A DNA stretch of 64,000 bases from Candidatus Bathyarchaeia archaeon. Lineage in GTDB: Archaea > Thermoproteota > Bathyarchaeia > 40CM-2-53-6. The stretch is taken from positions 608,001 through 672,000 of the forward strand of contig JBEKVV010000001.1 in assembly GCA_049513715.1 (NCBI GenBank), written 5' to 3'. This document shows positions 3,775-33,508 of this stretch, one piece after another (the stretch's first letter is position 1; every line of letters begins with the position of its first letter). The notes below the pieces were generated by a model. The model had not been told where the DNA came from. It made no database searches and saw only the letters and a program-made list of their open reading frames with translations. The translations under genes and the position numbers were made by a program.

Positions 3775-4461
3775 TCACTTGAGCGGCGGTTTTCCCGCGT
3801 CTGCTAGTTTTTGATTGATGGCTGCTTTTTTCTGCTTTAGGCGTTCAGGTTGGACGTAGTAGTGGTCGAAGAGGCCATCTAGGACGTCGAGATTCGACTC
3901 GGCCTCTCCGGCTTCAACCTCAACGATCTCCCCAGAGGACTTAGATTTTATGGGGTGTGTAGCGAAGTTGCCAACGACCCTTATTGCATCTACTATTTCT
4001 CGTAGGCTGCTTGGGAGTGTGGGCAACACTTCGTCAATCTGCTGTGACAATTCCTTCGACTTGGTGTGCGCCGCTTGTGTCAAGACTGTTTGCAGACACC
4101 TTCTTGACAATGCGGCGCTTGCCATTGGACTTATGGCAAGCACTTCAGCCGACTCCCGGTATACCGTCCTGACGTGCTCAGGAACTTCAGGCGGAACAGG
4201 CCTGACTGCTCCTCCCCGCGGCCAAATGAACCAATTTTGAGTCACCTTTTCCTTATAGTCAGTGCCTGCAGGTGTAGCGACCACACATGTAACTACGAGT
4301 CGCTGGCAATTCGGGCAACTTTCGAAGTCCACGGCGATTCGTTCCGAATCACTCCTGCCTTCAAGGGCATTGACCCCCCAGTCTGTGGTTGTTCCAACTG
4401 GACCAACGCTTTGAGGTTTGAAGTACACATCGTGAAGGCAATGCGGACACTTTCCTCTCAT
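3775..4461 (-). CDS. DUF4145 (HEPN-like) protein with N-terminal Zn ribbon
   Basis: CPHC/CPNC; ASAALSRRCLQ; IRVVGNFATH. Confidence 0.85.
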   Translation of the reverse strand: MRGKCPHCLHDVYFKPQSVGPVGTTTDWGVNALEGRSDSERIAVDFESCPNCQRLVVTCVVATPAGTDYKEKVTQNWFIWPRGGAVRPVPPEVPEHVRTVYRESAEVLAISPMASAALSRRCLQTVLTQAAHTKSKELSQQIDEVLPTLPSSLREIVDAIRVVGNFATHPIKSKSSGEIVEVEAGEAESNLDVLDGLFDHYYVQPERLKQKKAAINQKLADAGKPPLK

Positions 4462-5694: not shown

Positions 5695-5826
5695 TAGAAG
5701 TCACTGGCCTTCTCTGAGCGGCAAACATAGATAGCGGAAATGTTGTTTGCAGAGTGTACGCTCTGAGTTGACTCAAACTATTGAAGAAACAGACGAAAGC
5801 TCTCTCAATTATTGGTTCTCGCAATC

Positions 5827-6837
5827 CTATTTTTTCTTCTTTCTACTAACGACTAGAGAGGCGAATGCCGTCGTTACCGCGATTTCGGCATAGAATACCA
5901 TTTCAACCAAGCTGAGCTGTGGCGGAAGCAGTTGAACTGCACCGACGACGAAAGGCAACGTGCCGATTCCTATGCCGACAAATAGAGTAAGACCCTCTGA
6001 AACCTCAAGCACTTCGACCCTGCTGATTGCCACTATGATAAGTCCCAAGAAGAGCAGTGATGGAACCCAGAAAGCGAGTGTTCCTCGCAAGACTTCATCG
6101 GACGGACGCAGAAAGGAGACTTTCAAGGAATAGAAGTCATCGAATGACGAGAAGTTGACTGTATAATTCGCTGGTCCTTGATAGTAATTCCGCACTAAGT
6201 CAGCAGGAAGAGAGGACCCGAGCTTTACGAAATTCTGAGAAATCCTCCAGCTGTCGGCTATGCTTGGTGACGCTGAGACGTATGAAGTTAAACCCACGAG
6301 ATTGAGAGTCCTATTGAAACCGAACAAGAACGTAAGTGAATAGGCATCCCATGGGTATTCGCCCTCATGCTTCAGAGGCCATTCATGAGGTCTGGCACCT
6401 TTCTCAGGATAAGTCGGAAGCGGCCAATATCCACCTCGCTCCGGGCTAGAGAAGTCCCAGGTTCCATTCGAGAGCGTCGTTGGATGCCCCAAGATGTATT
6501 GGAAGTCTTTCGGAGACCATGAAAGAACGGAGTTGAATGACTTATTGTCGAGCGTTTGAAAATCCACTTGGAAAGAACTAGTTCGGAGAACGGTTCCCTT
6601 CACATCTAACTCAAGTGACTCTAGGGTAAATGCTGCGGACGCCTGCCCATTGGTAATGCCGAATGGTCCAAATGTGTAGTACGGTTTGCTCACGACCGGA
6701 TAGGATACGGCTGAGGCCCCGACGAACAAAACCGCTCCTGTGATGAGCACTAGCAAGGTTATGTGAATGGAATGTACGACAAACCATCTCCAACTCGATT
6801 GAAGATACGATTTCAGAGAGCCGATCAATTTGGGCAT
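5827..6837 (-). CDS. hypothetical membrane protein (N-terminal TM, soluble beta domain, 3 C-terminal TMs)
   Basis: Hydropathy pattern; YPWDAYSL motif before the TM bundle. Confidence 0.65.
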   Translation of the reverse strand: MPKLIGSLKSYLQSSWRWFVVHSIHITLLVLITGAVLFVGASAVSYPVVSKPYYTFGPFGITNGQASAAFTLESLELDVKGTVLRTSSFQVDFQTLDNKSFNSVLSWSPKDFQYILGHPTTLSNGTWDFSSPERGGYWPLPTYPEKGARPHEWPLKHEGEYPWDAYSLTFLFGFNRTLNLVGLTSYVSASPSIADSWRISQNFVKLGSSLPADLVRNYYQGPANYTVNFSSFDDFYSLKVSFLRPSDEVLRGTLAFWVPSLLFLGLIIVAISRVEVLEVSEGLTLFVGIGIGTLPFVVGAVQLLPPQLSLVEMVFYAEIAVTTAFASLVVSRKKKK

Positions 6838-7036: not shown

Positions 7037-8383
7037 TCATAGAGGGTCTCCGCGGGGATTTGTGGCAGGTGTGCCGCAATTCATGCAAATGAGGTCTGTC
7101 CATGGGAATTCTGCGCCGCAATACTGGCACTTATTTCTAATCTCATTTCTGGATTGAGCTGGAGAGAGGGCAATGAATCCATCCAATTCCTGAGGCTCAA
7201 ACATTGACACGTCTGTCGCGATGCGAAACTGCGAATAACCAATTGCCCCTGCATACAGGTCATAGACACCGGGAGCAACGTCTAGAGAATAGCGGCCCTT
7301 ATCTCTGGAGGACAAATAGCAAGCGGACATGACCTTTCTGCCGGTTGACTGATGCGTTGAAGGGACCGCCGCGGTACCGCTTGCTATGACAACCGCCGGC
7401 AGGGTCAGCGGATTGCCTTTCGATAGATACAATGTCCCTGACAGACTCCAAGTCACATATTCCCCCTTGACCGCGATAGGGTGAAAATCAAATTGGGATG
7501 CTGGGGGGGTCGCCCCGACGACTGATATCTCATCGCTGCCGTAGAACCGGTAGGTTCCTGCTATTTTGGGAGCGACCACGTCCGAAAGCCTGAAACTGAA
7601 CCATCCCCCTTTCAATGAAGACTGAGCCTCGGGGAATCTGAGTGTGGTCTTCACAACCCAGAATCTTGGGTAGTTCGGATCGTTCTCTGGGTTCACTGTA
7701 ACCATTATGTCGCCTGCAGAAACCAGCAAATCCGTATGGATCTCTTCAGCGGGATTGTTCGCCGCCGCTGTCAAGTCAAAGTCCCGCGGAATGTAGACGG
7801 TTATGACCTCGTCTCCGTGAAGAACCTGATGAGGCCTAACCGCCACCAGCACTCTAACTTTGTTCTGGTGGTCGTCCGTAGATGTCAGAACCTCTGTTCC
7901 TTCAATCGGATACCGTGAGTCTTGATGAGCGCGGTAACCCCAAGGTTGAGGTGAAATCGCAACGACCCCATACGTTTGAAGGGCGGCCTCGGCTGTGAAT
8001 TCTGCTGCAATTTCAGCAAGCAACTTCCGCAACTCAACAGTATTTGATTTGGAAAACCTATGGTACTTACAAACCAGAGGAAGAATTCCCTTGACTTTAG
8101 AGACCGCTTCCTCAACCAGGCCATAGATCGGCTTTCTATCTCCAAACGCCATGTAAGCCATACCGAGCTCGTTCTGAATCCAATCGCTCTCATCTGAAGT
8201 AATCACTGCCAAGAACCCGTTAGATGCCTGTATCCTGTTCACTATGACAGGGAGCGGGGGGGTCTTGGAAATCTCTTGGGCAATAATGCACTCGATCCCA
8301 TGAACGCTCAACTCGCTTCTGATGACCTCCACCAACAATTCATCCCCCTTGGCGAAGCTTATCGAAAGAAACAGTTTGCCCAG
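7037..8383 (-). CDS. TIR-like domain fused to beta-sandwich/carboxypeptidase-regulatory-like domain and double Zn ribbon
   Basis: Frame extends to a CTG at 8383, adding KLFLSISF; FLAVIT..SDWIQNELGMA; DVAPGVYDLYAGAIGY; CQYC..CMNC. Confidence 0.7.
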   Translation of the reverse strand: MGKLFLSISFAKGDELLVEVIRSELSVHGIECIIAQEISKTPPLPVIVNRIQASNGFLAVITSDESDWIQNELGMAYMAFGDRKPIYGLVEEAVSKVKGILPLVCKYHRFSKSNTVELRKLLAEIAAEFTAEAALQTYGVVAISPQPWGYRAHQDSRYPIEGTEVLTSTDDHQNKVRVLVAVRPHQVLHGDEVITVYIPRDFDLTAAANNPAEEIHTDLLVSAGDIMVTVNPENDPNYPRFWVVKTTLRFPEAQSSLKGGWFSFRLSDVVAPKIAGTYRFYGSDEISVVGATPPASQFDFHPIAVKGEYVTWSLSGTLYLSKGNPLTLPAVVIASGTAAVPSTHQSTGRKVMSACYLSSRDKGRYSLDVAPGVYDLYAGAIGYSQFRIATDVSMFEPQELDGFIALSPAQSRNEIRNKCQYCGAEFPWTDLICMNCGTPATNPRGDPL

Positions 8384-8735: not shown

Positions 8736-8770
8736 GAATGTGTGCGCACCACTAAGGGCACACACAAATG
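8736..8770 (+). repeat. degenerate TIR|TSD|TIR junction copy
   Basis: gaatgtgtg|CGCACCACTAaggg|cacacacaaat. Confidence 0.7.
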
Positions 8771-9056
8771 ACCGCGGCAGGGATTCGAGAGATTGGTGAA
8801 AAGTTCTGGTTTGGACATGTTGGAAAAGAATCGAGTTCAGGCATTAACGTGAGCCGCATCATCGCGTGTGCACAATTACGTTCACAACCGAAAACTCCAC
8901 AAGGCAAGACAAGTCCTACTATGGACCGCAGGATAACGCGAATGGGTGTGAGCCACAATAGAACGATCTAAGAATTACCACCGGCCATCGCCAGAGTTTG
9001 ATCTTCTACGAGAGGGCGCTCGTGCATTTAGTCGATGCGACCCGGACAAAGTCGAA

Positions 9057-10091
9057 TTGCTGATTCAGTCGTGCTATGAGAATTTCTTGGAGCTCAATCT
9101 TCAACACCCTCGGCTATTCGCCAAAGCAAAAGAAGATCACCTTGATTCCCAGAGTCTCCTGAAACGAGTGCTGGTGATTGCAATTCCACCAAAAACCGAA
9201 ACCAAGTGGGGCCAGAAGATTCTCTGCCTATTTATGTCATTTCAATATGCGGTTGAGGCAGTCATCGTCGCGCACCTCGAAATGAGGAAAGCCTGGCAGA
9301 AGTCTCTCTCTCGAAAGCATTTTTGGGAGATTGTTGATGATTACCGCAGGCGACTGCTGGACCTTTTCGGAGAGGTTGGGTTTGATCGTTCCGACGTCCA
9401 TTTTTTCATTAAGGGAGACGAGGTTGTGTGGCCCGTTAATGTCTCTGAGGTAGAAGCTCTCGACTATGTCGACGCGAATCTGCAGGCTGGCTTATGGGCA
9501 AAACTCAATGACGTTTTTGGCCTTTTTACCGTTCAGGCCTATGAGGCGGCGGAGATTGTTCGAAATAAAGGCGCCTTGTTTAAGGCATTATTCGATGGAA
9601 TACCGACTCGGTTCTTTGCTTCAAGGAGAAGTGTCAAGAAAAGCACTAGCGTGCGCACTGAAGAACGCAATAAACTACCAAAAATCGGACTCGTTCTCGG
9701 TCGAATCACTACAACAAGTTATGTCAAAGACGTTCCAAGTAGTTGGAGCGTCCCATTCACATTCAGAAATCACGATAAAGATGTGTTAGGAAGAGTGAGC
9801 AAGTCCAAGATATCTGTCGTTGTCCGACCCTATGTTTCAGGAATCATTCCCGAACGACACGGATTCGGCCCTGGCGAACTCGACGACTTTCTCATTCCAC
9901 CAGGTCGCACGGTCGTTGGTGTAGCAAATATCGGCATTCAGCCTTTGTTTGCGAGAAACAATTGGGAGGACGAGTATAGTCAAGCTTTCAATACAGGTGA
10001 TCTCAAAATCAAACTGCAAATCAGTTACGTAATAAGTGACGAGTTTGGTAGGATCAAGAAAGCTAGAGAGCGTAGACTTCGCGTTTCTTAG
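9057..10091 (+). CDS. hypothetical protein
   Basis: 344-aa ORF, no recognised motif. Confidence 0.6.
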   Translation: MLIQSCYENFLELNLQHPRLFAKAKEDHLDSQSLLKRVLVIAIPPKTETKWGQKILCLFMSFQYAVEAVIVAHLEMRKAWQKSLSRKHFWEIVDDYRRRLLDLFGEVGFDRSDVHFFIKGDEVVWPVNVSEVEALDYVDANLQAGLWAKLNDVFGLFTVQAYEAAEIVRNKGALFKALFDGIPTRFFASRRSVKKSTSVRTEERNKLPKIGLVLGRITTTSYVKDVPSSWSVPFTFRNHDKDVLGRVSKSKISVVVRPYVSGIIPERHGFGPGELDDFLIPPGRTVVGVANIGIQPLFARNNWEDEYSQAFNTGDLKIKLQISYVISDEFGRIKKARERRLRVS

Positions 10092-10099
10092 TCACTGGT

Positions 10100-10717
10100 T
10101 CAAATACCTAAGTATCTCCGAACAAAATCTATGATGACCTCAGCTGCTGGCGGACCTAACCTTGTCGCCATTTCCTTCACCCTGTTCAAACGACTAGGTC
10201 TGAGAAGATCCTTACCTTTCTCCTTCTCAAGGAGACGGAGCTCTTCTTTGATGGTGGCAGTTTGGTCTTTTGAAACAATTCTATCCAAATAGTCTTCGAG
10301 GTCTTTCAGCGAATTTACGGTGGTCGTTTGGTTCTGAGTTATGATTCCTCCAGAAGCTATCTGCCCACCGCTCACAGGTCCATTGACATTAATGATGTTA
10401 AAGTTAACAGCGAGATTCCCGCGTGCACGTCCCTCAACCGCCTCAATCCCGAAACTTGTTAAGCCAAGTAGGTGCGACCATTTCTTCGTCGTTCCAATTG
10501 ATCCTGTGGACTGACCCTTTACTAGATTTGAATCGATTAAATATTCGATGTTGAACTCTGCTAGTTCTTCGCTTATGGCAAGAAGTTTAGCGTATTCTGA
10601 AGGTTTTGTAAGAATCTCAGCTCCCAGCTGTTTCTTGTTGTACAATTCCTCAAGAATCTTGGCTCTGATGTCCTGATTGCTCAGACCTGACAAAGCCCTT
10701 ATGCACTGGCCGTCCAT
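10100..10717 (-). CDS. hypothetical protein with N-terminal winged helix
   Basis: IRAKILEELY...FNIEYLIDSNLV...LTSFGIEAVE wHTH pattern. Confidence 0.65.
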   Translation of the reverse strand: MDGQCIRALSGLSNQDIRAKILEELYNKKQLGAEILTKPSEYAKLLAISEELAEFNIEYLIDSNLVKGQSTGSIGTTKKWSHLLGLTSFGIEAVEGRARGNLAVNFNIINVNGPVSGGQIASGGIITQNQTTTVNSLKDLEDYLDRIVSKDQTATIKEELRLLEKEKGKDLLRPSRLNRVKEMATRLGPPAAEVIIDFVRRYLGI

Positions 10718-10835
10718 CCTACGAGCTCAGATTTGAACCGCTTGGTGTGTTATTGTGCGCACCACGATACCCACACACACAAATCAAAGCCTGAACGACC
10801 GTTGAAATTCCGTCCCCCGAGCGATGCCTCGACTT

Positions 10836-11112
10836 CTATTTCGTCAAGCCACCCTGCTTCCGGAGTCTCTCCACCAGTTCCCGGTATCGGGGGTCAGCCC
10901 TTGCCTTAGCGAAGAGAGGCGCGTGCATCACGGTTGAGGCAATTATCGTATGGGCTTCGAGCGCCTTGTTCATGTACTCGAAGTAGGAGTCGAGGTCTCC
11001 GAGGGCGTGGTAGACGTACGCAATGAAGTTGAAGCCGATCGGACCTATGTTGGCGGTCTCGATCTTCTTGATTGCGAGGAGCGCCCGTTCCCTGTCGCCT
11101 TCCAGAGCCGCG
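10836..11112 (-). pseudogene. C-terminal fragment of a TPR protein (adenylate/guanylate cyclase-TPR type tail)
   Basis: ALGDLDSYFEYMNKALE...PLFAKARADPRYRELV; visibly higher GC than flanks; no native start. Confidence 0.7.
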
Positions 11113-11280
11113 TTCAGCAAAATTAACCTCGCGAGCGCTTCCCATCAAGAAACGACTCAGTTCAGTCGCCTTCAGTTCGATAATAGTATCCCACTTCCAC
11201 CTGCGGCCCTTGTAGTTTACGCCTGAATTGAAGTGTTGACGGAGAAGATTGATGAACCGTTGCTTGCCTTCCGCTTCGAG
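11113..11280 (-). pseudogene. cas1: casposase-type Cas1 C-terminal remnant (56 codons, mostly outside the ORF track)
   Basis: LEAEGKQRFINLLRQHFNSGVNYKGRRWKWDTIIELKATELSRFLMGSAREVNFAE resembles the FN..V.Y.G...W..II..K..EL..YL.G....DF pattern of archaeal solo/casposon Cas1. Confidence 0.7.
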
Positions 11281-11423
11281 AGATTCGCTAGACTACTTTC
11301 AAGGTCACATATTCAACCGTAGAGAGGCCTGGTAGGTGAGGCAGGCACGTTGACCCTCGCCTGCGAGATATATTCTGTATATTGGCAACCATTAAACCGA
11401 CTTGACGATTTGTACTCGGTTCT

Positions 11424-11624
11424 ATGAGCCACCATTGTAAATTGTGTCACCCACCTAAGATATTTCGATCAATCGACCGACTGCATGAACATCATTGGAC
11501 GACTCATCGACGATGGTGCTGCAATGTTTGTCATCATTTGAGTCGACTTCACTCAGGATTCCATGGCTGTGCAGTCTGTGGTTGCCGATACTCGAAGAAG
11601 CAGCAAGAGCGCCTTCGTGACTAG
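11424..11624 (+). CDS. small C2H2/Cys-His-rich zinc-finger protein
   Basis: CKLC..F...L..H....H followed by CNVC.H and CAVC. Confidence 0.6.
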   Translation: MSHHCKLCHPPKIFRSIDRLHEHHWTTHRRWCCNVCHHLSRLHSGFHGCAVCGCRYSKKQQERLRD

Positions 11625-11696
11625 AACTCCTTCAGGGCGTCGGAAGTTGCTTATTCGAGTGTGAGTGCTATGTTGTATCTGAGAGGTGACTAATGT

Positions 11697-11813
11697 ATGG
11701 CAAAGCAAAGTAGGGGAGCTAAGAAAGCGTGGACGGCTGCTAGAGATAAGAAGGTGACGAAAGCACGCGAGAAGAAGAAAGAACGCAAAGCCGCCCTTTC
11801 CACGTATCAATAG
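11697..11813 (+). CDS. 38-aa highly basic micro-protein
   Basis: GAGGTGA RBS upstream; MAKQSRGAKKAWTAARDKKVTKAREKKKERKAALSTYQ*. Confidence 0.45.
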   Translation: MAKQSRGAKKAWTAARDKKVTKAREKKKERKAALSTYQ

Positions 11814-11919
11814 GAACGCGCTGTTCTGACTTGAACCGTTTTTTCCGTTTCGGCAGACTCATTCTGAAAATGATGTGAATAACGGGTAACAGATCAAGAA
11901 GGGTAACGTAGCGGGACGC

Positions 11920-12009
11920 TTGTGAGGAGTATCACTGGTGCGAGCATCGCAATTTGAACTACCAATTTTGTGTGTGTGGGTATAGTGGTGCGGGCAACAG
12001 AATTTGAAC
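11920..12009 (-). repeat. two tandem ~50-bp tRNA-3'-end mimic + TSD + TIR-start units
   Basis: Minus strand GTTCAAATTCTGTTGCCCGCACCACTATACC-CACACACACAAAA, then GTTCAAATTGCGATGCTCGCACCAGTGATAC. Confidence 0.75.
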
Positions 12010-12115
12010 CATCGTCGTTCAGGCGTTATTTTGTGTGTGTGCGCACCACTAGACCCGCCCTATCGGAAAAATACGAGTGAACAGTTGGGGTTTGGTGCTG
12101 TTTGTGGCTGAGTGG

Positions 12116-12147
12116 TTTGTGTAGTAGTGTTTAGTGGCGCGCGCAAC
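12116..12147 (-). repeat. additional degenerate target+TIR copy
   Basis: 24/32 ungapped identity to 11967-11998. Confidence 0.6.
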
Positions 12148-12192
12148 TCCACTAGACGCAGCTGCATTTAGTCAATCTTTGGCAAAGTGAAA

Positions 12193-13719
12193 CTAGAGCT
12201 TTCGTTTGCGTGACTGGTTTGGAACGAAGCAAGCGATCAAGGCCACTGAATCTATGGCTGTGGCGATAGGAATCCACATCACAACTATGCTAGGATAGCT
12301 GGTTATCGGTGATTCGAACCCCATTCTTAGGGGTAATAGGATCAACGCCCCAACGATCAAGAAATAGGAGCAGACCAACGCCGCCAGCAGCCTCAGCCCG
12401 AGCACATCAGTCGGCCTTCCGATAATGAAAACCATCAAAGTGAGGATAGCACCGATGAGCAAAGGCGTTAGAGAGAGCATCCAAGCATTCACAGAATGCG
12501 GAAAAATCGAAGCCCACGGCACTATAGGAAGGTGAAGACTGAGACTTCTGAGAAGAAAGCCAAGGTCGCTGAAATAGCCATACACTACAAAATAGGAAAG
12601 CCCAGCAAAGCCCAACACTCCGAAACAAAACCGGTCGCGGCGTCTGACCAGTGTCCTCATGAAGTGGGCAACAAAGAATAACGAGCCGAAGGTAGCGAAA
12701 ATTGCAGGGGCAATTGCTATGAACGGAAACAAGACAAGCACGGCAGCAGACCAAATCGAGAAGAACGCAATGCCAGCTTTGCCAAAGATACATGTCTGAA
12801 ACTGAAGCCAATTCGCTTGTACAACGATTGCCACACGAATAACAGCAGCAACCGAAGAGGAGAGAGGAAGGAGTTGCTTGAGGACCACCTTAACTATTCT
12901 AGCGAACGTTTCAGAGCTGTTTGGCGCAGTGTCGTTTCTCACCTTCCAGGACTCCGCTTCGTAGATGATAGCGGGAGCAATTGCGGCGAAGAATAGAAAT
13001 TCTACATAAGCAACGTAGGGGGTAAGAACAGATGGCGTGCTCGGCTGACAGGCCAATATGCTCGCAGGCCAGATGCTGTAGTATATTCCTGTCAACATCA
13101 CGAGCCCATAAAGCAAGCCGTAATTTACAAAGACATGAATTAACTCCGTCCTATTGTTCGCCTCCCAGAAAAATGAGACCGATGGGAGTCTAATCTTCTT
13201 CCAAGCTCCATAGACTCGCACCCTGAGTCCATTCATCCGTTCATAGACTCTTACCAAGAGTCCATTCGTCAACGGGACAATTGCTATCAAAAAGATACCC
13301 AAAGCGGCGCCAAAAAGGAGTCCCTGCGCGGCATCGTTTAGGATTCCGTTTGCCAGCGATACAGTCGGTGGATAATCCCAGACAGAAATGCCCTGGATGC
13401 CGAGAAGGATTTCTTCTTTGGCTAGCGCGATCCAGTACACACCAACGAGACCACCGAAGAAAAGGAATCCTGAAGAAATCCACAGCGCTGTTCGTGCTGC
13501 AAATCGACCGATTTTTCCGATTCGTCGTGAGCGATACAAAAGTAGAAGTGGCATTTCAGGGACCAACGGAAGAGTCATCAGAGGTACGACCAGTACTGGA
13601 GGGAAGCCGAAATTGAACAACGAGAAAGAATAAGCGAATGGTGCGATTACGAACGCGAGATAAAGAACCAGGGAGACAGCGTAAAGCCAAAATTCACTGA
13701 GACGAAGCTGAATCCTCAT
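12193..13719 (-). CDS. hypothetical polytopic membrane protein
   Basis: 508 aa, more than 10 hydrophobic segments. Confidence 0.7.
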   Translation of the reverse strand: MRIQLRLSEFWLYAVSLVLYLAFVIAPFAYSFSLFNFGFPPVLVVPLMTLPLVPEMPLLLLYRSRRIGKIGRFAARTALWISSGFLFFGGLVGVYWIALAKEEILLGIQGISVWDYPPTVSLANGILNDAAQGLLFGAALGIFLIAIVPLTNGLLVRVYERMNGLRVRVYGAWKKIRLPSVSFFWEANNRTELIHVFVNYGLLYGLVMLTGIYYSIWPASILACQPSTPSVLTPYVAYVEFLFFAAIAPAIIYEAESWKVRNDTAPNSSETFARIVKVVLKQLLPLSSSVAAVIRVAIVVQANWLQFQTCIFGKAGIAFFSIWSAAVLVLFPFIAIAPAIFATFGSLFFVAHFMRTLVRRRDRFCFGVLGFAGLSYFVVYGYFSDLGFLLRSLSLHLPIVPWASIFPHSVNAWMLSLTPLLIGAILTLMVFIIGRPTDVLGLRLLAALVCSYFLIVGALILLPLRMGFESPITSYPSIVVMWIPIATAIDSVALIACFVPNQSRKRKL

Positions 13720-14172: not shown

Positions 14173-14423
14173 CACCCACCCTCCCGGAAGGCCAATCCCT
14201 CGCATCCAAGGACGATGTAAGCAACACGCGCTTCCATGACATTATTGAAATGCTTGCGGAGCACTTATGAGAACGCAGACTAGGACCGGCCACGTTTTTC
14301 CATCTGATGGCAAAATGCCCCTCTGATGGTTCTCACTTTTCACGAGATTTAGACAGTATTCGCCGCTCATGCGGAAATCGTAAAAGACTGTCAGTTATAG
14401 AATCACAATCGCAAGCGGCGGAC

Positions 14424-15944
14424 ATGGGAAGGATTATCGGCCCATCGCGAGCGGTCATACTACTGTTCTTTCTGTTCGTCTTTATAGTGAACTCTTCCAA
14501 TTATCCGAAGGCAAAGGGGCAGTCGTCTTACAACCTGTCGATCACCGCTCAGACGTCTAGCACCGAGATGGGGTCCGCAGTTGACTTGAATGGGCAATTA
14601 ACTCCCTTGCCCCCTGTGCCCACCAATGTCTGCGTCCCGGCCTGCGTGAGGCTCCAATTGCAGGAGATGAACCTAGATTCACAAATCTGGAATGACCTCG
14701 AACAATACACTGAGATTTGTGGACCCGGCGTTACTGGTACAGGTTGTCAAGACTTCCATAGCGATGGAAGCTTTCGAATAGTCTGGACTCCGGATATGGC
14801 TGGCAAATTCATGGTAAGAACCAAGCTTGTTTCTTGGACCCTTGTTTGCAACGGTGGACAGATTTGCACATCGCAGCGGAACGTGCTGGCGACAAGCAAC
14901 GACCTGGGGTGGTTCGAAGTGCAACCAAGGTCTTTCGTCGGCATCCCAATCTACTCCAACTCGGAATGGAACATGGCCGTCGGGTTTGGTTGGGTTGGCC
15001 TATTCTTCGGTTCCATCGGTGTGCTGCTCTGGGCCGTAAGTAGACGACAAAATCCTTTTCGAAAAGAAACCGGTCCGAGCATGCGTGTTACGGCTAAACT
15101 CAAAAGCACTGACGATAGCCCGGACGATTTAGTTGGTGGTCTAACTGAAGTCAAGAAAGCTCTTGCTGAAGCAATTGAGCTGCCGCTAATGCGGCCAGAT
15201 CTCTTTGAGAGGTACCGTGTGGTGCCCCCTACCAAAGGACTGCTTCTGTACGGTCCACCCGGCTGCGGCAAGACACTTCTTGCAAAATCTATCGCGGCTA
15301 AAGGAAAGATAGCGTTCGTCTATTGTCGCTCCACAGACATATTCACGAAATACTACAGTGAAAGCGCCACGCGCGTAAGGGAGTTGTTTGAAAACGCACG
15401 GAAGAAGGCCCCGTGCGTGCTGTTCTTCGACGAGATTGATGCTCTCGTTCCAACTAGAGGCTATTCAGACGACGCGACAGCGCGAGAAGACGTCAGAGTA
15501 ACTAGCGAATTCCTCGCGCAGATGGATGGTCTTACTCCACTTGAGCGCGTGATCGTGATTGCTGCAACGAACCGTCCTGATGCCATAGACCCAGCCCTTA
15601 TGAGGCCAGGAAGATTCGATAGGATATTATACGTTCCACCTCCCGATTTGGAGGCACGCACTGCCATCTTGCGAAATAGTATGCATGGTGTACCGAAAAA
15701 TGATGACGTGAATCTCAATGAGATTGCCCGAAGTACTGATGGCTACTCTGGAGCGGACCTCGTAGCTCTTTGCCGCGAGGCCAAGATGCGCGCGATGAAA
15801 GCAGAAGTTGAAGGCTCACCGCGCCCTGTCATGCCAAGAGATTTCGCAGATGCTCTGACTGTTGTGAAACCTAGCATCTCGCAAGCAATGCTTGAGAAAT
15901 TTGAAGCTTTTGTGAACTCGTTTAGAAGGTACAGAGAGAGCTAG
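14424..15944 (+). CDS. membrane-anchored AAA+ ATPase (Cdc48-like domain) with Cys-rich predicted ectodomain
   Basis: Signal/TM helix, Cys-rich beta region, second TM, GPPGCGKT, LFFDEID, ATNRPDAIDPALMRPGRFD. Confidence 0.85.
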   Translation: MGRIIGPSRAVILLFFLFVFIVNSSNYPKAKGQSSYNLSITAQTSSTEMGSAVDLNGQLTPLPPVPTNVCVPACVRLQLQEMNLDSQIWNDLEQYTEICGPGVTGTGCQDFHSDGSFRIVWTPDMAGKFMVRTKLVSWTLVCNGGQICTSQRNVLATSNDLGWFEVQPRSFVGIPIYSNSEWNMAVGFGWVGLFFGSIGVLLWAVSRRQNPFRKETGPSMRVTAKLKSTDDSPDDLVGGLTEVKKALAEAIELPLMRPDLFERYRVVPPTKGLLLYGPPGCGKTLLAKSIAAKGKIAFVYCRSTDIFTKYYSESATRVRELFENARKKAPCVLFFDEIDALVPTRGYSDDATAREDVRVTSEFLAQMDGLTPLERVIVIAATNRPDAIDPALMRPGRFDRILYVPPPDLEARTAILRNSMHGVPKNDDVNLNEIARSTDGYSGADLVALCREAKMRAMKAEVEGSPRPVMPRDFADALTVVKPSISQAMLEKFEAFVNSFRRYRES

Positions 15945-26452: not shown

Positions 26453-26800
26453 TTGAGAATTCCCGTAAAAAAGGCAATTCTCTCTCGCATGAACATACTT
26501 GAAGTCGAGGCCGGGACGAACGGTTATCATGGCGGAGATTCTGGTGGGGGTAGCCGAACCTACTTAGCTTTGAGAGACCGCGGTGCGACGACATGGCGGC
26601 TCAGGGTGAGAGACCGGTGTGGAAAGGACTGGATTTTCGAGCAGCCGGTCTCAGTTGAGATTACCGTGGGTGGCGACAGCGAACTTGACACTTTTCTCGA
26701 CGCCTTGAAGTTCTCCGCTCAAGCCCTAACAGATTTACTACGCCTTGAACACGCCGACAAGCCCACGCATGACGTATTCCACGACGTCGAGGTGGAGTAG
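26453..26800 (+). CDS. hypothetical MGE protein
   Basis: AGTNGYHGGDSGGGSRTY...GGDSELDTFLDALKF; abuts the prim-pol gene. Confidence 0.65.
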   Translation: MRIPVKKAILSRMNILEVEAGTNGYHGGDSGGGSRTYLALRDRGATTWRLRVRDRCGKDWIFEQPVSVEITVGGDSELDTFLDALKFSAQALTDLLRLEHADKPTHDVFHDVEVE

Positions 26801-26804
26801 TGGA

Positions 26805-29093
26805 TTGTCGAGTATGTTGCGCCTTGGGATGGCTGCGCTGCGCAAAGCGCTGAACCTATGGGCATACGACGACTACGTACAATTCTACGTTGATAACGAT
26901 TTTTGCATAATACCGATTATCCCCGAAACCAAGAAGCCGAACCTGAACGAATGGAAAGAGTTCCAGCAACGAAAGCCGAGTCCCGACGAAATTCAAGAAT
27001 GGTTCGGTGCGAAAGAGAGCCAACGCCGACCGAGCATTGCCGTAATTGCAGGTCGCATTTCAGATAACTTAGTGATAATTGACTTCGACGAACTGGAATG
27101 GTATTCAAAATTCTTTGCAGCGCCGTTCTTGACCACCGCTGAGATCGAAAGCACCACGTTAGTCGACAAGACAAGCCGTGGCGTGCACGTTTTCCTTCGC
27201 TCATACGTGCCAATGAAAAGCTACAACATTCCAGAACTGCACGTGAATGTGCAAAGCGAAGGCCGTTATGCGCTCGTGCCGCCAAGCATTCACCCGTCCG
27301 GTGCGCAGTACACATTTCTGACAGAACCAAGAGCACCCCGCCTAATCGAAAACCTGCCAGACGTTTTGAAGAACCGCATAGAAGGCATGAATTTCCAAGT
27401 GCCAGCGGTCTTAGACCCTATTGCTGAAGGCAACGTTCAGGTTCACGTTCGCCCTTGGCGACGTTTCCCGCCGCAAGTACAAGCGTACTTCGTTGACACG
27501 GAGATTGGAGATCGCCACCATAGGGCGGTCGGCATTGCTTCCACAATGCTGAACGAATGGAAATTCCCGCTAGAAATGGCAAGACAATGGTTGTATGAAT
27601 GGAACGACCTTGTGTTGAAGCGACCAATTCCCGTCGCCGATATTGACCACGCATTACACGAAGCACAAGCGAAAGGCTACGTGTACGGCAAACAAACCAT
27701 TCAACCGGCAGCACTGACCGACGACGAACAAAAGGCCAGCGAAGCCCTAGCGAAAGACCCAGCACTGTTATTCAAAGTGAAAACTGCACTTGGCGGCCTA
27801 GTGGGCGAAGACAACAACCGCTTGCTGCTATTCGTACTGAACCTTGCCAAGCAAAGCGTCGAAATTTCGGGGCAAAGCGCAGGCGGCAAAAGAACATTGG
27901 TCGACGAAGTGCTGCGGGGCTTCCCTGACGACTCATATCAGAAAGTAACGGGCGTCACTGACAAGGCGCTGCGCTATCTTGCTGAAAGCATTCGCACGCT
28001 TTACATTGCTGAACGTGGTGCGCTCGAATCACACGGCGAAGAAACAACTGCGGCGTTCGACGCCAAGATGGTCATTTCAGAAGGCAAACTAAGCATTCTC
28101 GTGCCAGAGAAAGACGAAGAAACAGGCAAAATAAAGTCGACCACGATTGAGACCAAGATCGAGAACATTATTTCCACTAGCACGCAACTGTCGCTGCCTG
28201 AAGAACTAGAAAATCGACTGTGGCGCACGAGCATTGACGACAGCGAAGGCCAGAACGCTAAGGTTCGTGATTACCTACTTGATTCGGCGGCGCAGGCCAA
28301 CGACGACAAGCCTGATTTTGCCCCGCAGAAACAGCAAGTACAAAGTCTCGTCAAACTGATTGAGGTTGAAGCACCGAAGGCCGTTATTGTTCCTTTCGCA
28401 CCGGCTCTGAAGTCGCTGTTACCGAGCGACAAAACACGGGTACGACGAGACACTACGAAGTTGCTTGCCCTGGTGCGATACATTGCTATTCTTCACTACA
28501 AGCAACGCCCAAGTTTCACAGGCAAGAAAGGCATTGTGCATGTCGTTGCCCTTCCCGCCGACCTTTACGCTGCGCTAAGAATTGGTTATGCGGCGTTCGT
28601 TGAAACTCGAACCGGTTTCAATGCCTCAATTCGTCGTGGTTACGAGATAGCAAAGACGCTTTCAGAAATTACCACGGAAGCCGTTCAAAATGCTGGGGGC
28701 GTTAGCGACCGCACTGCCATACGGTACGTCAAGGCACTCAGGAAGCAAGGCATTCTTATTGAATCTGAGAAACGGGGACGAATCCCAATTTATACATTGG
28801 CGCCAAATGCGGCGAAACTTGTCGTCGTCGAAAAGGCGGACGTTCTGGGCCGTTTTGATTGGAAGGAGCTTGAATTAGCCTGCGAAATGGTCGCCGCCAC
28901 GGGGTCCGTAAAATCGCCGGTCATCGACCCGTTGACTGGCGACCTCGTGGACCTGATTGGCGGCGATCATAATTCCAAGGCTGAAACGGCGGACAATCAA
29001 GAAACAACCCAAGAAATGCACTCAGAAATGGCCGCCAAGCCACTTGACGACTTTTCGGCGTTGGCGGCGACGAACACGAGCATTGGGAAGTAG
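26805..29093 (+). CDS. bifunctional primase-polymerase fused to AAA+ helicase-like domain and wHTH (start uncertain; ORF open from 26745)
   Basis: IIPI..TKKP..WKEFQ, IIDFD, TSRGVHVF, ALVPPSIHPSG; GQSAGGK, LYIAE, ELENR, RVRRD. Confidence 0.88.
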   Translation: MSSMLRLGMAALRKALNLWAYDDYVQFYVDNDFCIIPIIPETKKPNLNEWKEFQQRKPSPDEIQEWFGAKESQRRPSIAVIAGRISDNLVIIDFDELEWYSKFFAAPFLTTAEIESTTLVDKTSRGVHVFLRSYVPMKSYNIPELHVNVQSEGRYALVPPSIHPSGAQYTFLTEPRAPRLIENLPDVLKNRIEGMNFQVPAVLDPIAEGNVQVHVRPWRRFPPQVQAYFVDTEIGDRHHRAVGIASTMLNEWKFPLEMARQWLYEWNDLVLKRPIPVADIDHALHEAQAKGYVYGKQTIQPAALTDDEQKASEALAKDPALLFKVKTALGGLVGEDNNRLLLFVLNLAKQSVEISGQSAGGKRTLVDEVLRGFPDDSYQKVTGVTDKALRYLAESIRTLYIAERGALESHGEETTAAFDAKMVISEGKLSILVPEKDEETGKIKSTTIETKIENIISTSTQLSLPEELENRLWRTSIDDSEGQNAKVRDYLLDSAAQANDDKPDFAPQKQQVQSLVKLIEVEAPKAVIVPFAPALKSLLPSDKTRVRRDTTKLLALVRYIAILHYKQRPSFTGKKGIVHVVALPADLYAALRIGYAAFVETRTGFNASIRRGYEIAKTLSEITTEAVQNAGGVSDRTAIRYVKALRKQGILIESEKRGRIPIYTLAPNAAKLVVVEKADVLGRFDWKELELACEMVAATGSVKSPVIDPLTGDLVDLIGGDHNSKAETADNQETTQEMHSEMAAKPLDDFSALAATNTSIGK

Positions 29094-32233: not shown

Positions 32234-33508
32234 ATGCGGGGGGCAATTCTTGCAGCTGGTGAGGGCTCCCGAATGTGGCCCTTGGCTGAAAGCAAACCGA
32301 AGCACTTACTGCCCGTGGGCGGAAGGCCAATTCTTTCGCACATTCTTGAAGCGCTCAAGCAGAATTCAATCCGCGAAGTCTACATGGTCGTTGGATACCG
32401 AGCTGAAGACATTCGAACCGCATTTGGCGACGGAGCCAAACACGGCCTGCATATCGAATATTTGGACCAACCAAAATGGACTGGAACCGCCTCTGCCATG
32501 AAGGTTGCGTACAACGCCGTTGGACGGGAACCCTTTCTGGCTATCTATGGCGATTTGTGGGTTAACTCTTCAGCTGTGCAAGCGGTTATTGAAGAAGCTG
32601 ACAACTGCCCGAGAGTCATGGGTGTTGCCCAAGTTTCGAACCCAACAGAATTTGGCGTCGTTGAGCTCGCTGGAGACAGGCTGGCAAGAATCAATGAGAA
32701 ACCTACAGGAAAAATGCTAACGGAAGGTTGGGTCAATACCGGCATCTACGTTTTGGACGGAGAAGTCTTCAACGCGATCGACAAGACCGCGGCCTCGAAA
32801 AGGGCAGAGTATGAACTTACTACGTCCCTCCAACACCTGCTTGACGAAGGCAAGGAAATCCGAAGCGCCATTGTTGACCGCGAGGATTGGATGGATGTTG
32901 GACGACCTTGGGATTTGCTGGAAGCGAATGAGCGCTCTCTCGAAAACCTCTCACACCGAGTGAAGGGCGCGGTTGAGCAGGGCGCAGTCTTGAAAGGCCC
33001 AGTGTGGCTTGAAGAAGACTCTGTCGTGAAATCAGGCTCGTACCTAGAGGGGCCTGTCTACGTTGGTAGAGGTAGTAGAATTGGGCCCAACGCCAGAATT
33101 CGTCCTTCGACAGCAATTGGGGACGGAGTCACTATCGGAACTTCATGCGAGATCAAGAACTCGGTTGTGATGAACGGAACTAGGATTCCACACCTTTCCT
33201 ACGTTGGTGACAGCGTCATTGGGGAAGACTGCAACCTGGGCGCGGGAACGATAACTGCAAACATTCGTTTCGACGAAAGACCACTGAGGATGAAGGTCAA
33301 AGGTCGCATGCAGGAGACAGGAAGGCGAAAGATAGGAACCATTATGGGTGATAGGGTTCAGACGGGCATCAACACGAGCATACTGCCCGGCGTGCGAATA
33401 GGGTCCGATTCTTGGATTGGCCCCGGCCTCGTATTAACCAAGGATGTTCCATCAAAGCGAACGGTCTTAACAAAACAGGTAACGACGATTAGGCCACGCA
33501 GGCACTGA
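32234..33508 (+). CDS. glmU: bifunctional sugar-1-phosphate nucleotidylyltransferase/acetyltransferase
   Basis: ILAAGEGSRM..KPK, PHLSYVGDS, hexapeptide repeats. Confidence 0.92.
   Translation: MRGAILAAGEGSRMWPLAESKPKHLLPVGGRPILSHILEALKQNSIREVYMVVGYRAEDIRTAFGDGAKHGLHIEYLDQPKWTGTASAMKVAYNAVGREPFLAIYGDLWVNSSAVQAVIEEADNCPRVMGVAQVSNPTEFGVVELAGDRLARINEKPTGKMLTEGWVNTGIYVLDGEVFNAIDKTAASKRAEYELTTSLQHLLDEGKEIRSAIVDREDWMDVGRPWDLLEANERSLENLSHRVKGAVEQGAVLKGPVWLEEDSVVKSGSYLEGPVYVGRGSRIGPNARIRPSTAIGDGVTIGTSCEIKNSVVMNGTRIPHLSYVGDSVIGEDCNLGAGTITANIRFDERPLRMKVKGRMQETGRRKIGTIMGDRVQTGINTSILPGVRIGSDSWIGPGLVLTKDVPSKRTVLTKQVTTIRPRRH

Follow-up and report, generated by a model that had tools for sequence, protein, structure and literature searches.

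A probable decayed casposon in a Bathyarchaeia genome, with copies of the casposase target in its terminal repeats

Why should the two ends of a mobile element carry, facing inwards, what looks like the 3′ end of a tRNA gene? The question is raised by a 64,000-nt stretch of Candidatus Bathyarchaeia DNA (hereafter the window: contig 1:608001-672000 of a 2.79-Mb archaeal genome), in which a small element at window positions 10772-12041, here called element 2, forms a tandem with element 1 (8759-10757), whose ends are of the same type. The original prediction, made from the letters of the window, was that of a casposon whose terminal inverted repeats (TIRs) contain the target of further insertions, with an acceptor that would fit tRNA-Leu. 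Its core, a casposon with a used copy of its target in its terminal repeats, was right; the identity of the tRNA was wrong. We consider it probable that 10772-12041 is a decayed non-autonomous casposon, of the family served by a family-2-type casposase, and that its repeats embed a copy of the target that is read and used by that enzyme.

Anatomy of the element ends

Read on the minus strand from 12041 to 11929, the right end of element 2 consists of two head-to-tail units, an outer one (D) and then an inner one (C), each with a CA-repeat tip and a piece resembling a tRNA tail, in the common order CA-repeat end, spacer, GTTCAAAT-N5-N7-A-CCA. In D, the tip CACACACACAAAA (12041-12029) and a 19-nt spacer (12028-12010) lead into the mimic GTTCAAATTCTGTTGCCCGCACCA (12009-11986), in which a T-loop-like stretch of 8 nt is followed by 5 nt, 7 nt, A and CCA, just the sequence and tRNA-like spacing that had been predicted; tip, spacer and mimic together (11986-12041) form the right TIR. 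After 7 nt (CTATACC, 11985-11979) comes the tip of C, again CACACACACAAAA (11978-11966), so the fresh end expected directly after CTATACC is present. A spacer of 6 nt (TTGGTA) joins this tip to a second mimic, GTTCAAATTGCGATGCTCGCACCA (11959-11936), of the same T-loop, 5-nt, 7-nt, A, CCA spacing, which is followed by GTGATAC (11935-11929). This second unit had been expected 50 bp further in, and in a decayed state: a tRNA-like piece does lie 50 bp inward, and it is intact.

Both units can also be described by the 14-nt segments that start at CGCACCA. One of these, CGCACCA+CTATACC (copy C, 11979-11992, minus strand), is part of the mimic of the outer repeat, and the inner tip begins right after it. 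Unit C (11929-11978), made up of tip, spacer, mimic and 14-nt segment, has a segment of its own, CGCACCA+GTGATAC (11942-11929), with no CA-repeat end after it; it is a solo unit. With up to one mismatch, GTTCAAAT-N5-TGCYCGCACCA matches the window twice (0.00 expected from 100 shuffles) and CACACACACAAAA three times (0.10 expected). These pieces are not tRNA genes: neither ARAGORN nor Rfam reports a tRNA gene in the window, and the T-stem halves (5 nt on each side of TTCAAAT) hardly pair, with one Watson-Crick and two G-T pairs in the outer copy and a single G-T pair in the inner one.

The left TIR of element 2 (10772-10828, plus strand) is built in the same way from a tip (CACACACACAAAT, 10772-10784), a spacer (10785-10800) and a degenerate mimic, GTTGAAAT-TCCGT-CCCCCG (10801-10819), the last present as predicted. 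The arms 10772-10799 and 12014-12041 are 89% complementary over 28 nt, and the similarity runs on through the tRNA-like piece, so that element 2 has true terminal inverted repeats, both with an inward-facing mimic. Conservation of this feature in relatives had been proposed as a check; of the 22 other genomes examined in the genus, 15 contain the pattern. Direct 14-nt flanks adjoin the two tips on the plus strand: CGCACCACGATACC (10758-10771; copy B, CGCACCA+CGATACC) on the left and CGCACCACTAGACC (12042-12055; copy D, CGCACCA+CTAGACC) on the right.

The casposase connection

The same kind of end bounds elements that encode Cas1 in congeners. There, intact Cas1 proteins of 404-410 aa are found within elements sharing the CA-repeat tips, and searching the present genome by tblastn with two congener casposases revealed five remnants, four elsewhere and one within element 2 (11113-11280, minus strand), which corresponds to residues ~290-350 of ~404-410, with 55% identity to a congener casposase and with stop codons upstream. 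The remnant, taken with the congener elements that have the same ends, makes it probable that element 2 is a decayed casposon, in agreement with the prediction; the objection that an element in a genome lacking Cas1 could not be a casposon was considered, and was overturned by the congener Cas1 genes and the remnants. Cas1 is encoded in 12 of the 22 other genomes, one of which (G017) has 11 matches; intact Cas1 is present in G013, G014 and G017.

Among the Cas1 elements whose delimitation was attempted in relatives, both ends were clear for two, at loci L019 (2.8-4 kb) and L023 (8.6 kb), each with CA-repeat tips. The 410-aa Cas1 of L023 (10167-11399, minus strand; Pfam, 5e-52) has as its best solved relative chain 6opm_A (7e-71; query residues 9-404 against 22-411 of 431), the next-best structure match being a CRISPR Cas1 at 3e-25. 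6OPM is the casposase of Methanosarcina mazei (PMC6977970). Pfam detects no helix-turn-helix model in the L023 protein. The transposase of the whole family would be a casposase of family-2 type, a Cas1 homologue with a C-terminal extension. The L023 element is flanked on both sides by an identical 14-nt sequence, CGCACCACTATACC, the left copy of which follows a tRNA-tail mimic.

No PolB domain was found among the ORFs (open reading frames) of the two delimited Cas1 elements, and the PF00136 matches present in 5 genomes look like shared cellular genes. On contig 4 of G017, a PF03175 match (protein-primed-type PolB; 956660-957331) lies 11 kb from a Cas1 match (968191-968889); this may be a separate, family-1-like casposon in the same genus. 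Beside the L019 Cas1 element are single-gene units with the same junctions (5784-6728 and 11170-12072), which carry genes for an HhH-GPD glycosylase and an arginase-family protein, and in the present genome a 1.0-kb single-gene cassette (L006 1540-2440) has a perfect 14-nt duplication, CGCACCAGCTGACC.

The target and its copies

What does the mimic copy? The casposase of Aciduliprofundum boonei requires TCAAATC 9-15 bp upstream of its insertion site together with the first bases of the duplicated segment, and generates duplications of 14-15 bp (PMC6614799). The 14 bp duplicated in M. mazei always start with CGCA, the final four base pairs of a tRNA-Leu gene (PMC4779613; PMC6977970), and the target needs bp 12-17 upstream as well as the bases just 5′ of CGCA (PMC6977970). 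In the modules described here, GTTCAAAT spans positions -17 to -10 counted from CGCA, which leaves 9 bp between this T-loop motif and CGCA; TGC directly before CGCA is conserved, the 14-bp duplicated segment starts at CGCA, and the tip of the next element begins 14 nt after the C of CGCA. Conserved and variable positions coincide with those found by experiment to be important and unimportant, respectively, and to judge from this correspondence the tRNA-tail piece agrees with what has been published on the target requirements of family 2 casposases.

The real targets in this genome are tRNA-Gly genes. At contig 3:86163-86290 a tRNA-Gly(GCC) gene is occupied: its tail CGGCGGCCGCACCA (also read as GGTTCAAATCCCGGCGGCCGCACCA) is followed by CTGGACC and then CACACACAAAA. 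ARAGORN calls this gene Val(CAC), a call that we rejected when an Infernal alignment gave the anticodon loop CUGCCAC, i.e. Gly(GCC). A second occupied tail, CGGCGGCCGCACCA again, followed by CCCAACC, lies at contig 1:573334-573357. A tRNA 3′ end, a duplication starting at CGCA and an upstream motif from the T-loop region, the marks of a family 2 target, were thus all found. tRNA-Leu had been proposed on the strength of the acceptor; CGCA is the tRNA-Leu motif of M. mazei, though tRNA-Leu does not hold here, and the acceptor TGCYCGC was in none of the genome's tRNAs that surfaced in listings of T-loop and tail patterns. Neither of the two occupied tails runs from CGCACCA into CTATACC, the continuation that was to be checked; they go on with CTGGACC and CCCAACC. 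Genome-wide, ARAGORN reports 33 tRNAs when introns are allowed and 9 otherwise, with doubtful anticodons in several; the tRNA genes are rich in introns.

Across the genome, the module has the consensus GTTCAAAT, 5 variable nt, TGCY, CGCACCA, ~7 nt (consensus CTAGACC) and CACACAC. Under a strict rule there are 80 'CGCACCA-N7-tip' and 44 'tip-CGCACCA' junctions, grouped into 32 zones, many of them at contig ends, with distances from end to end mostly of 0.4-4 kb. The register is exact. CACACAC occurs within the next 72 nt at 37 of the 329 GTTCAAWT sites, the offset being precisely 31 at 26 of these, 30-34 at nine and otherwise at two, and the same test with a reversed control motif gave no CACACAC-associated sites. 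Conversely, among 43 exact CGCACCA-N7-CACACAC junctions an in-register T-loop motif is present at 21, an element end (GTGTGTG) stands right before CGCACCA, i.e. in tandem, at 13, and neither applies at 9. In the conservation profile GGTTCAAAT, TGC and CGCACCA are kept and the 5 nt between are variable.

At 59 of 102 tail-like sites of the genome at most 3 of the 5 T-stem pairs can form. For the 59 mimic-like pieces (defined by up to 2 mismatches and up to 3 T-stem pairs), there is a CA tip within 50 nt upstream at 31, a tip 7±1 nt after CCA at 34, and both at 21. Runs of two or three units split by the 14-nt segment are seen in the window, at contig 3:516534-516620 and at contig 11:8518-8606. 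The cargo between ends is varied, including KaiC-like ATPases, a nitroreductase, Zn-ribbon proteins and proteins of no Pfam family. An all-against-all BLAST comparison of 275 ORFs from the 32 zones gave small families only, and no recombinase common to the genome's elements emerged: Pfam searches of 10 recurrent ORFs returned KaiC-like ATPase, nitroreductase and Zn-ribbon matches, weak sub-threshold matches for one ORF, and nothing for five.

Insertion at the repeat-borne copies

If the mimic is a target, insertions next to it should leave the duplication. Such duplications of fixed length are found around element 2 (12/14 nt identical) and the L023 element (14/14), and in 28 loci of relatives. 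Of the 126 same-strand end pairs there, 14 have the same 14-mer on both flanks (null expectation 2%) and another 8 differ at one position (null 7%); these counts are not independent, since possession of the pattern or of Cas1 was the basis for choosing the loci and some ends belong to more than one pair. Among the 14 pairs with identical 14-mers, 11 have a mimic before the left copy, and 4 of them are marked as located within a terminal repeat.

The clearest case is on contig 4 of the present genome, where identical copies of CGCACCAGTAGACC at 201832 and 204646 enclose 2.8 kb of CA-tipped material, the left copy following a tip-spacer-mimic unit. The host sequence of this locus is uninterrupted in two congeners (L060 1490-1515; L061 1700-1730), which represent the empty site; the sequence read around these two sites contains no tRNA tail and no T-loop motif, no tRNA search having been run there. 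On both sides of the whole insert (contig 4:201790-204700; L001 1290-4200) is the host repeat CCTGTATCGTG. In its simplest reading the locus was formed in two steps, the arrival of an end unit with its target copy and then the use of that copy. The host repeat, of at least 11 nt, is shorter than, or offset from, the expected 14, and the unit that arrived first would be only ~46 bp long, which could reflect integration of a short end-fragment or the precise deletion of a full element.

The anatomy and its register, the connection of such ends with Cas1 and the 14-bp duplications, including those inside terminal repeats, can be read directly. Taken together, the junction sequences argue that mimic copies inside terminal repeats are used as targets.

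A proposed mechanism, and what weighs for and against it

In the mechanism that we favour, the terminal repeat would consist of a CA-repeat tip, a variable spacer and an inward-facing copy of the full integration site of the casposase, that is, GTTCAAAT, 9 bp and a 14-bp segment beginning CGCA(CCA), which is duplicated on insertion. The casposase would read this copy as it reads the tail of tRNA-Gly, and attach the incoming end 14 bp beyond CGCA. With each insertion, new sites would arrive, also away from tRNA genes; by stacking, nesting and decay, elements would come to form arrays of solo ends and of cassettes with a single gene. The right repeat of element 2 would have had its site used once (the end at 11978); a solo end with its own unused site remains, the rest of the inner element having presumably been lost by a deletion or excision through the internal site.

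Several observations weigh against this account. A Pfam search for Cas1 gave 0 matches in the present genome, which is 99.4% complete, and there being no intact casposase, there would be no current activity without help from outside. Across the other genomes there is no association between the pattern and Cas1 (both in 7, the pattern only in 8, Cas1 only in 5, neither in 2), and the best-delimited autonomous element, that of L023, has no mimic in its terminal repeats. The flanks of element 2 are not perfect, the 7 nt after CCA varying among junctions A-D, and genome-wide 5 of 43 end pairs have flanking 14-mers with at most one mismatch, where the null expectation is ~5%. Some junction 14-mers are inverted. 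In vivo, M. mazei casposons have been seen to excise, leaving a single empty site, to form tandems and apparently to transfer the element's own copy of the target, even in reversed orientation (PMC10359463); by analogy, a transfer of this sort could account for the inverted 14-mers. No partner end for unit C was found in the window and, since most inner units are solo ends, complete nesting of element within element is not shown. Of the predicted role of the element ends as targets, then, their use stands, on the evidence of ends in exact register and perfect 14-bp duplications; of the nested insertion that was also proposed, what is left in the window is a solo end.

Might the mimic be only a by-product of stacking? 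The true ends would then be the CA tips, and what seems to be a mimic-bearing repeat would be an older solo end with its target site, carried as a passenger whenever the outer tip was used. We regard this as rather unlikely, though it has points in its favour: most tip-spacer-mimic units are directly followed by another tip (22/30 in one listing and 34/59 in another), the autonomous L023 element does without the mimic, and solo terminal repeats beside CGCA are known in M. mazei (PMC4779613). It accounts less easily for the window, where the two arms share tip, spacer and mimic in inverted order and the left arm runs straight into cargo, for the Cas1-bearing element of L020, in which a tip-spacer-mimic unit leads into the element's own interior, or for one spacer type (AAAATAACGCCTGAAC...) that is found together with the mimic repeatedly, both at several loci and in a second genome. 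Even a passenger copy would still serve as a target; the choice concerns whether the mimic may have been selected as a landing pad or arose through stacking.

Less probable still is that the mimic serves mainly the handling of the element's own ends, as a casposase-binding site for synapsis, excision or replication that is recognized by the same DNA-reading domain as the tRNA tail, insertions of other elements being incidental. In its favour, integration requires only ~5 terminal nt, which leaves the long terminal repeats of casposons without a known role (PMC6614799); the C-terminal domain of the enzyme is essential and has been proposed to read the upstream motif (PMC6977970); and the boundary of solo units coincides exactly with that of the 14-nt segment, which would follow if cutting involved the internal site. 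The distances tell another story: tips and mimics are 15-36 nt apart, a variation that is unusual for an end-binding site, and the distance from mimic to next tip is fixed, so that a target fits better. A role in end-handling is in any case compatible with one as a target.

Attachment sites of tyrosine recombinases, in which the mimics would be displaced tRNA 3′ fragments (attL/attR) of integrated plasmids or viruses, can be virtually dismissed: such recombinase genes exist in the genome, and one adjoins the ATTTACCGGTACATATAA tRNA-tail family, but the CA-tipped elements have inverted ends, 14-nt duplications started at CGCA and Cas1 genes or remnants inside, the 10 recurrent cargo ORFs tested include no recombinase, and no Phage_integrase match lies in or near element 2. 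As a separate observation, neither CGCACCA nor TGGTGCG occurs among the att and repeat sequences that a thaumarchaeal survey gives in its supplement (PMC6563490). Integron-like attC sites were also considered, and rejected. The sites do not fit attC core motifs, which have the consensus GTTRRRY.

Element 1, the interior of element 2 and the surrounding region

To the left of element 2, element 1 (8759-10757, plus strand, 2.0 kb) begins with a CA-type left end, CACACACAAAT (8759-8769), and finishes with a degenerate right end comprising an inverted T-loop motif, GATTTGAACC (10730-10739), and TGTGTTATTGTG (10746-10757). It is preceded by junction copy A (CGCACCA+CTAAGGG, 8745-8758, plus strand), which stands between a degenerate ...GAATGTGTG end and the end of element 1. 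Copy B, as described, separates elements 1 and 2. The two ORFs of element 1 (9057-10091, plus; 10100-10717, minus) have no Pfam match, and no further copies of the element were found in this genome or in the fetched loci.

The interior of element 2 is a mosaic in which the casposase remnant is accompanied by an ORF of 94 aa that recurs elsewhere and by 530 bp closely similar to a small CA-tipped element of a congener. The 94-aa ORF (10836-11120, minus strand) belongs to no Pfam family and recurs beside CA-repeat ends in the genome and its relatives: the DNA is 82-84% identical to contig 5:22549-22831 and contig 2:55065-55345 and 74% identical to contig 2:72307-72588, three congener loci also have it, and each inspected copy has a tRNA tail or a CA-repeat tip nearby. 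The ORF may be an accessory gene of casposons. The segment 11301-11928 (unstranded) shows homology to a congener element: 11301-11830 matches part of a CA-ended element of 1.1 kb (L021 7812-8369) at 90% identity, a short additional match lies at 11906-11928, and the homology ends exactly at 11928/11929, which is the outer edge of the 14-nt segment of unit C. Within it is a 38-aa basic ORF (11697-11813, plus strand). An empty site for the window locus was not found, the right flank (12056-12800) having no homologue in the 22 congeners.

Around these elements, window 2300-31500 comprises ~29 kb of mostly unassignable ORFs between the genes for ribosomal protein S3Ae (1554-2186) and an NTP-transferase (32234-33508). 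It includes a DUF4145 protein (3775-4461), an AAA/Vps4-like ATPase (14307-15944) and a Prim-Pol protein (26745-29093), and looks like a variable island or integrated element that houses the casposon remnants. A 433-aa ORF at 7037-8338 (minus strand), with a weak CarboxypepD_reg match, has an 80% paralogue at contig 1:491641-492936 and three distant ones.

Two further kinds of end were seen elsewhere in the genome. After some CGCACCA-N7 junctions a C-run tip (CCCCCCAGAAAAC or CACCCCCCCAAAAA) replaces the CA repeat (contig 3:68362-68451, contig 3:523960, contig 4:240370 and contig 3:85257-85270), and may be a sister end type. The ATTTACCGGTACATATAA ends and their inverse form a second family (contig 5:160033-220140; L006 1440-1500 and 2590-2620), next to tRNA tails that end in CCCCCGCACCA and to the gene for a tyrosine recombinase at contig 5:218633-219133; 4 nt inside such ends, target mimics of the casposon type are present in several cases.

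Relation to known systems

The nearest relatives are the family 2 casposons, exemplified by AciBoo-C1 of A. boonei and the M. mazei elements at tRNA-Leu. Shared features are a casposase of Cas1 type, probably with the C-terminal extension, the use of tRNA gene 3′ ends as insertion sites, with a 14-bp duplication started at CGCA and a T-loop-region motif 9-17 bp upstream, and the occurrence of tandem insertions and solo terminal repeats (PMC4779613; PMC10359463). The Bathyarchaeia elements differ in having no PolB in the two delimited Cas1 elements, in targeting a tRNA-Gly with an encoded CCA, in a terminal repeat with a CA-repeat tip, in embedding leader-plus-target in the repeats of many copies, and in having dozens of small non-autonomous derivatives with single cargo genes. 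The 31-nt repeat of M. mazei, as quoted in PMC10359463, has no TTCAAAT motif, unlike the repeats here. The M. mazei solo TIRs are likewise isolated casposon ends beside a CGCA-type target, and have been proposed as steps towards CRISPR arrays (PMC4779613; PMC6977970); the solo units of the present genome differ from them in being 45-65 bp long, with their own upstream recognition motif, and in forming runs of two or three.

The resemblance to the leader-repeat junction at which Cas1-Cas2 adds to CRISPR arrays extends to a homologous integrase, an upstream motif (the leader), a duplication of fixed length (the repeat) and additions beside the leader, and in L023 it is the element adjoining the mimic that has the perfect duplication at its flanks. 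Here, by contrast, transposons or their ends are inserted rather than spacers, and the insert itself reproduces the 'leader'. With the tyrosine-recombinase elements that have a tRNA 3′ part in attP, and with integron arrays, our elements share tRNA-tail borders of acquired genes and arrays of small cassettes; they differ in relying on transposition by a Cas1 homologue with 14-bp duplication, and in that the tRNA is not rebuilt, its tail staying intact.

Tandem casposons, solo terminal repeats beside CGCA and insertion into other mobile elements are already known (PMC4779613; PMC10359463). In the casposon literature that we searched, we found no description of a terminal repeat embedding both the T-loop motif and the duplicated segment (the search covered material other than the supplementary lists of terminal repeats and target duplications of PMC4779613), nor, among the papers listed, of PolB-less cargo-carrying derivatives in arrays; a literature search also gave no description of casposons in Bathyarchaeia or Bathyarchaeota.

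Implications

Casposons are held to be ancestral to the adaptation module of CRISPR. The finding bears on two open questions in that history: by what route a transposon with a specific target began to form arrays next to a leader, and what the long terminal repeats are for. Where a terminal repeat carries both the leader-like motif and the duplicated segment, arrays and solo ends would follow directly from insertion, and the repeat-borne copy of the target would help to explain how elements pile up into arrays. More tentatively, and with much less confidence than in the reading of element 2 itself, we suggest that solo ends might be self-propagating leader-plus-repeat modules of 45-65 bp that recruit insertions at sites free of tRNA genes: since each would carry the upstream recognition motif and the duplicated 14 bp, they could give rise to arrays of 14-bp repeat, insert and 14-bp repeat, a living intermediate between transposon and CRISPR array, and to integron-like gene capture in this genus, with Cas1 as the mobilizer of single-gene cassettes. 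The casposase is in any case a candidate for the enzyme behind the tRNA-tail-bordered gene cassettes of this genome, and the data suggest that an uncultured genus of archaea harbours a large set of casposon derivatives, so far undescribed, that have cargo genes and no PolB.

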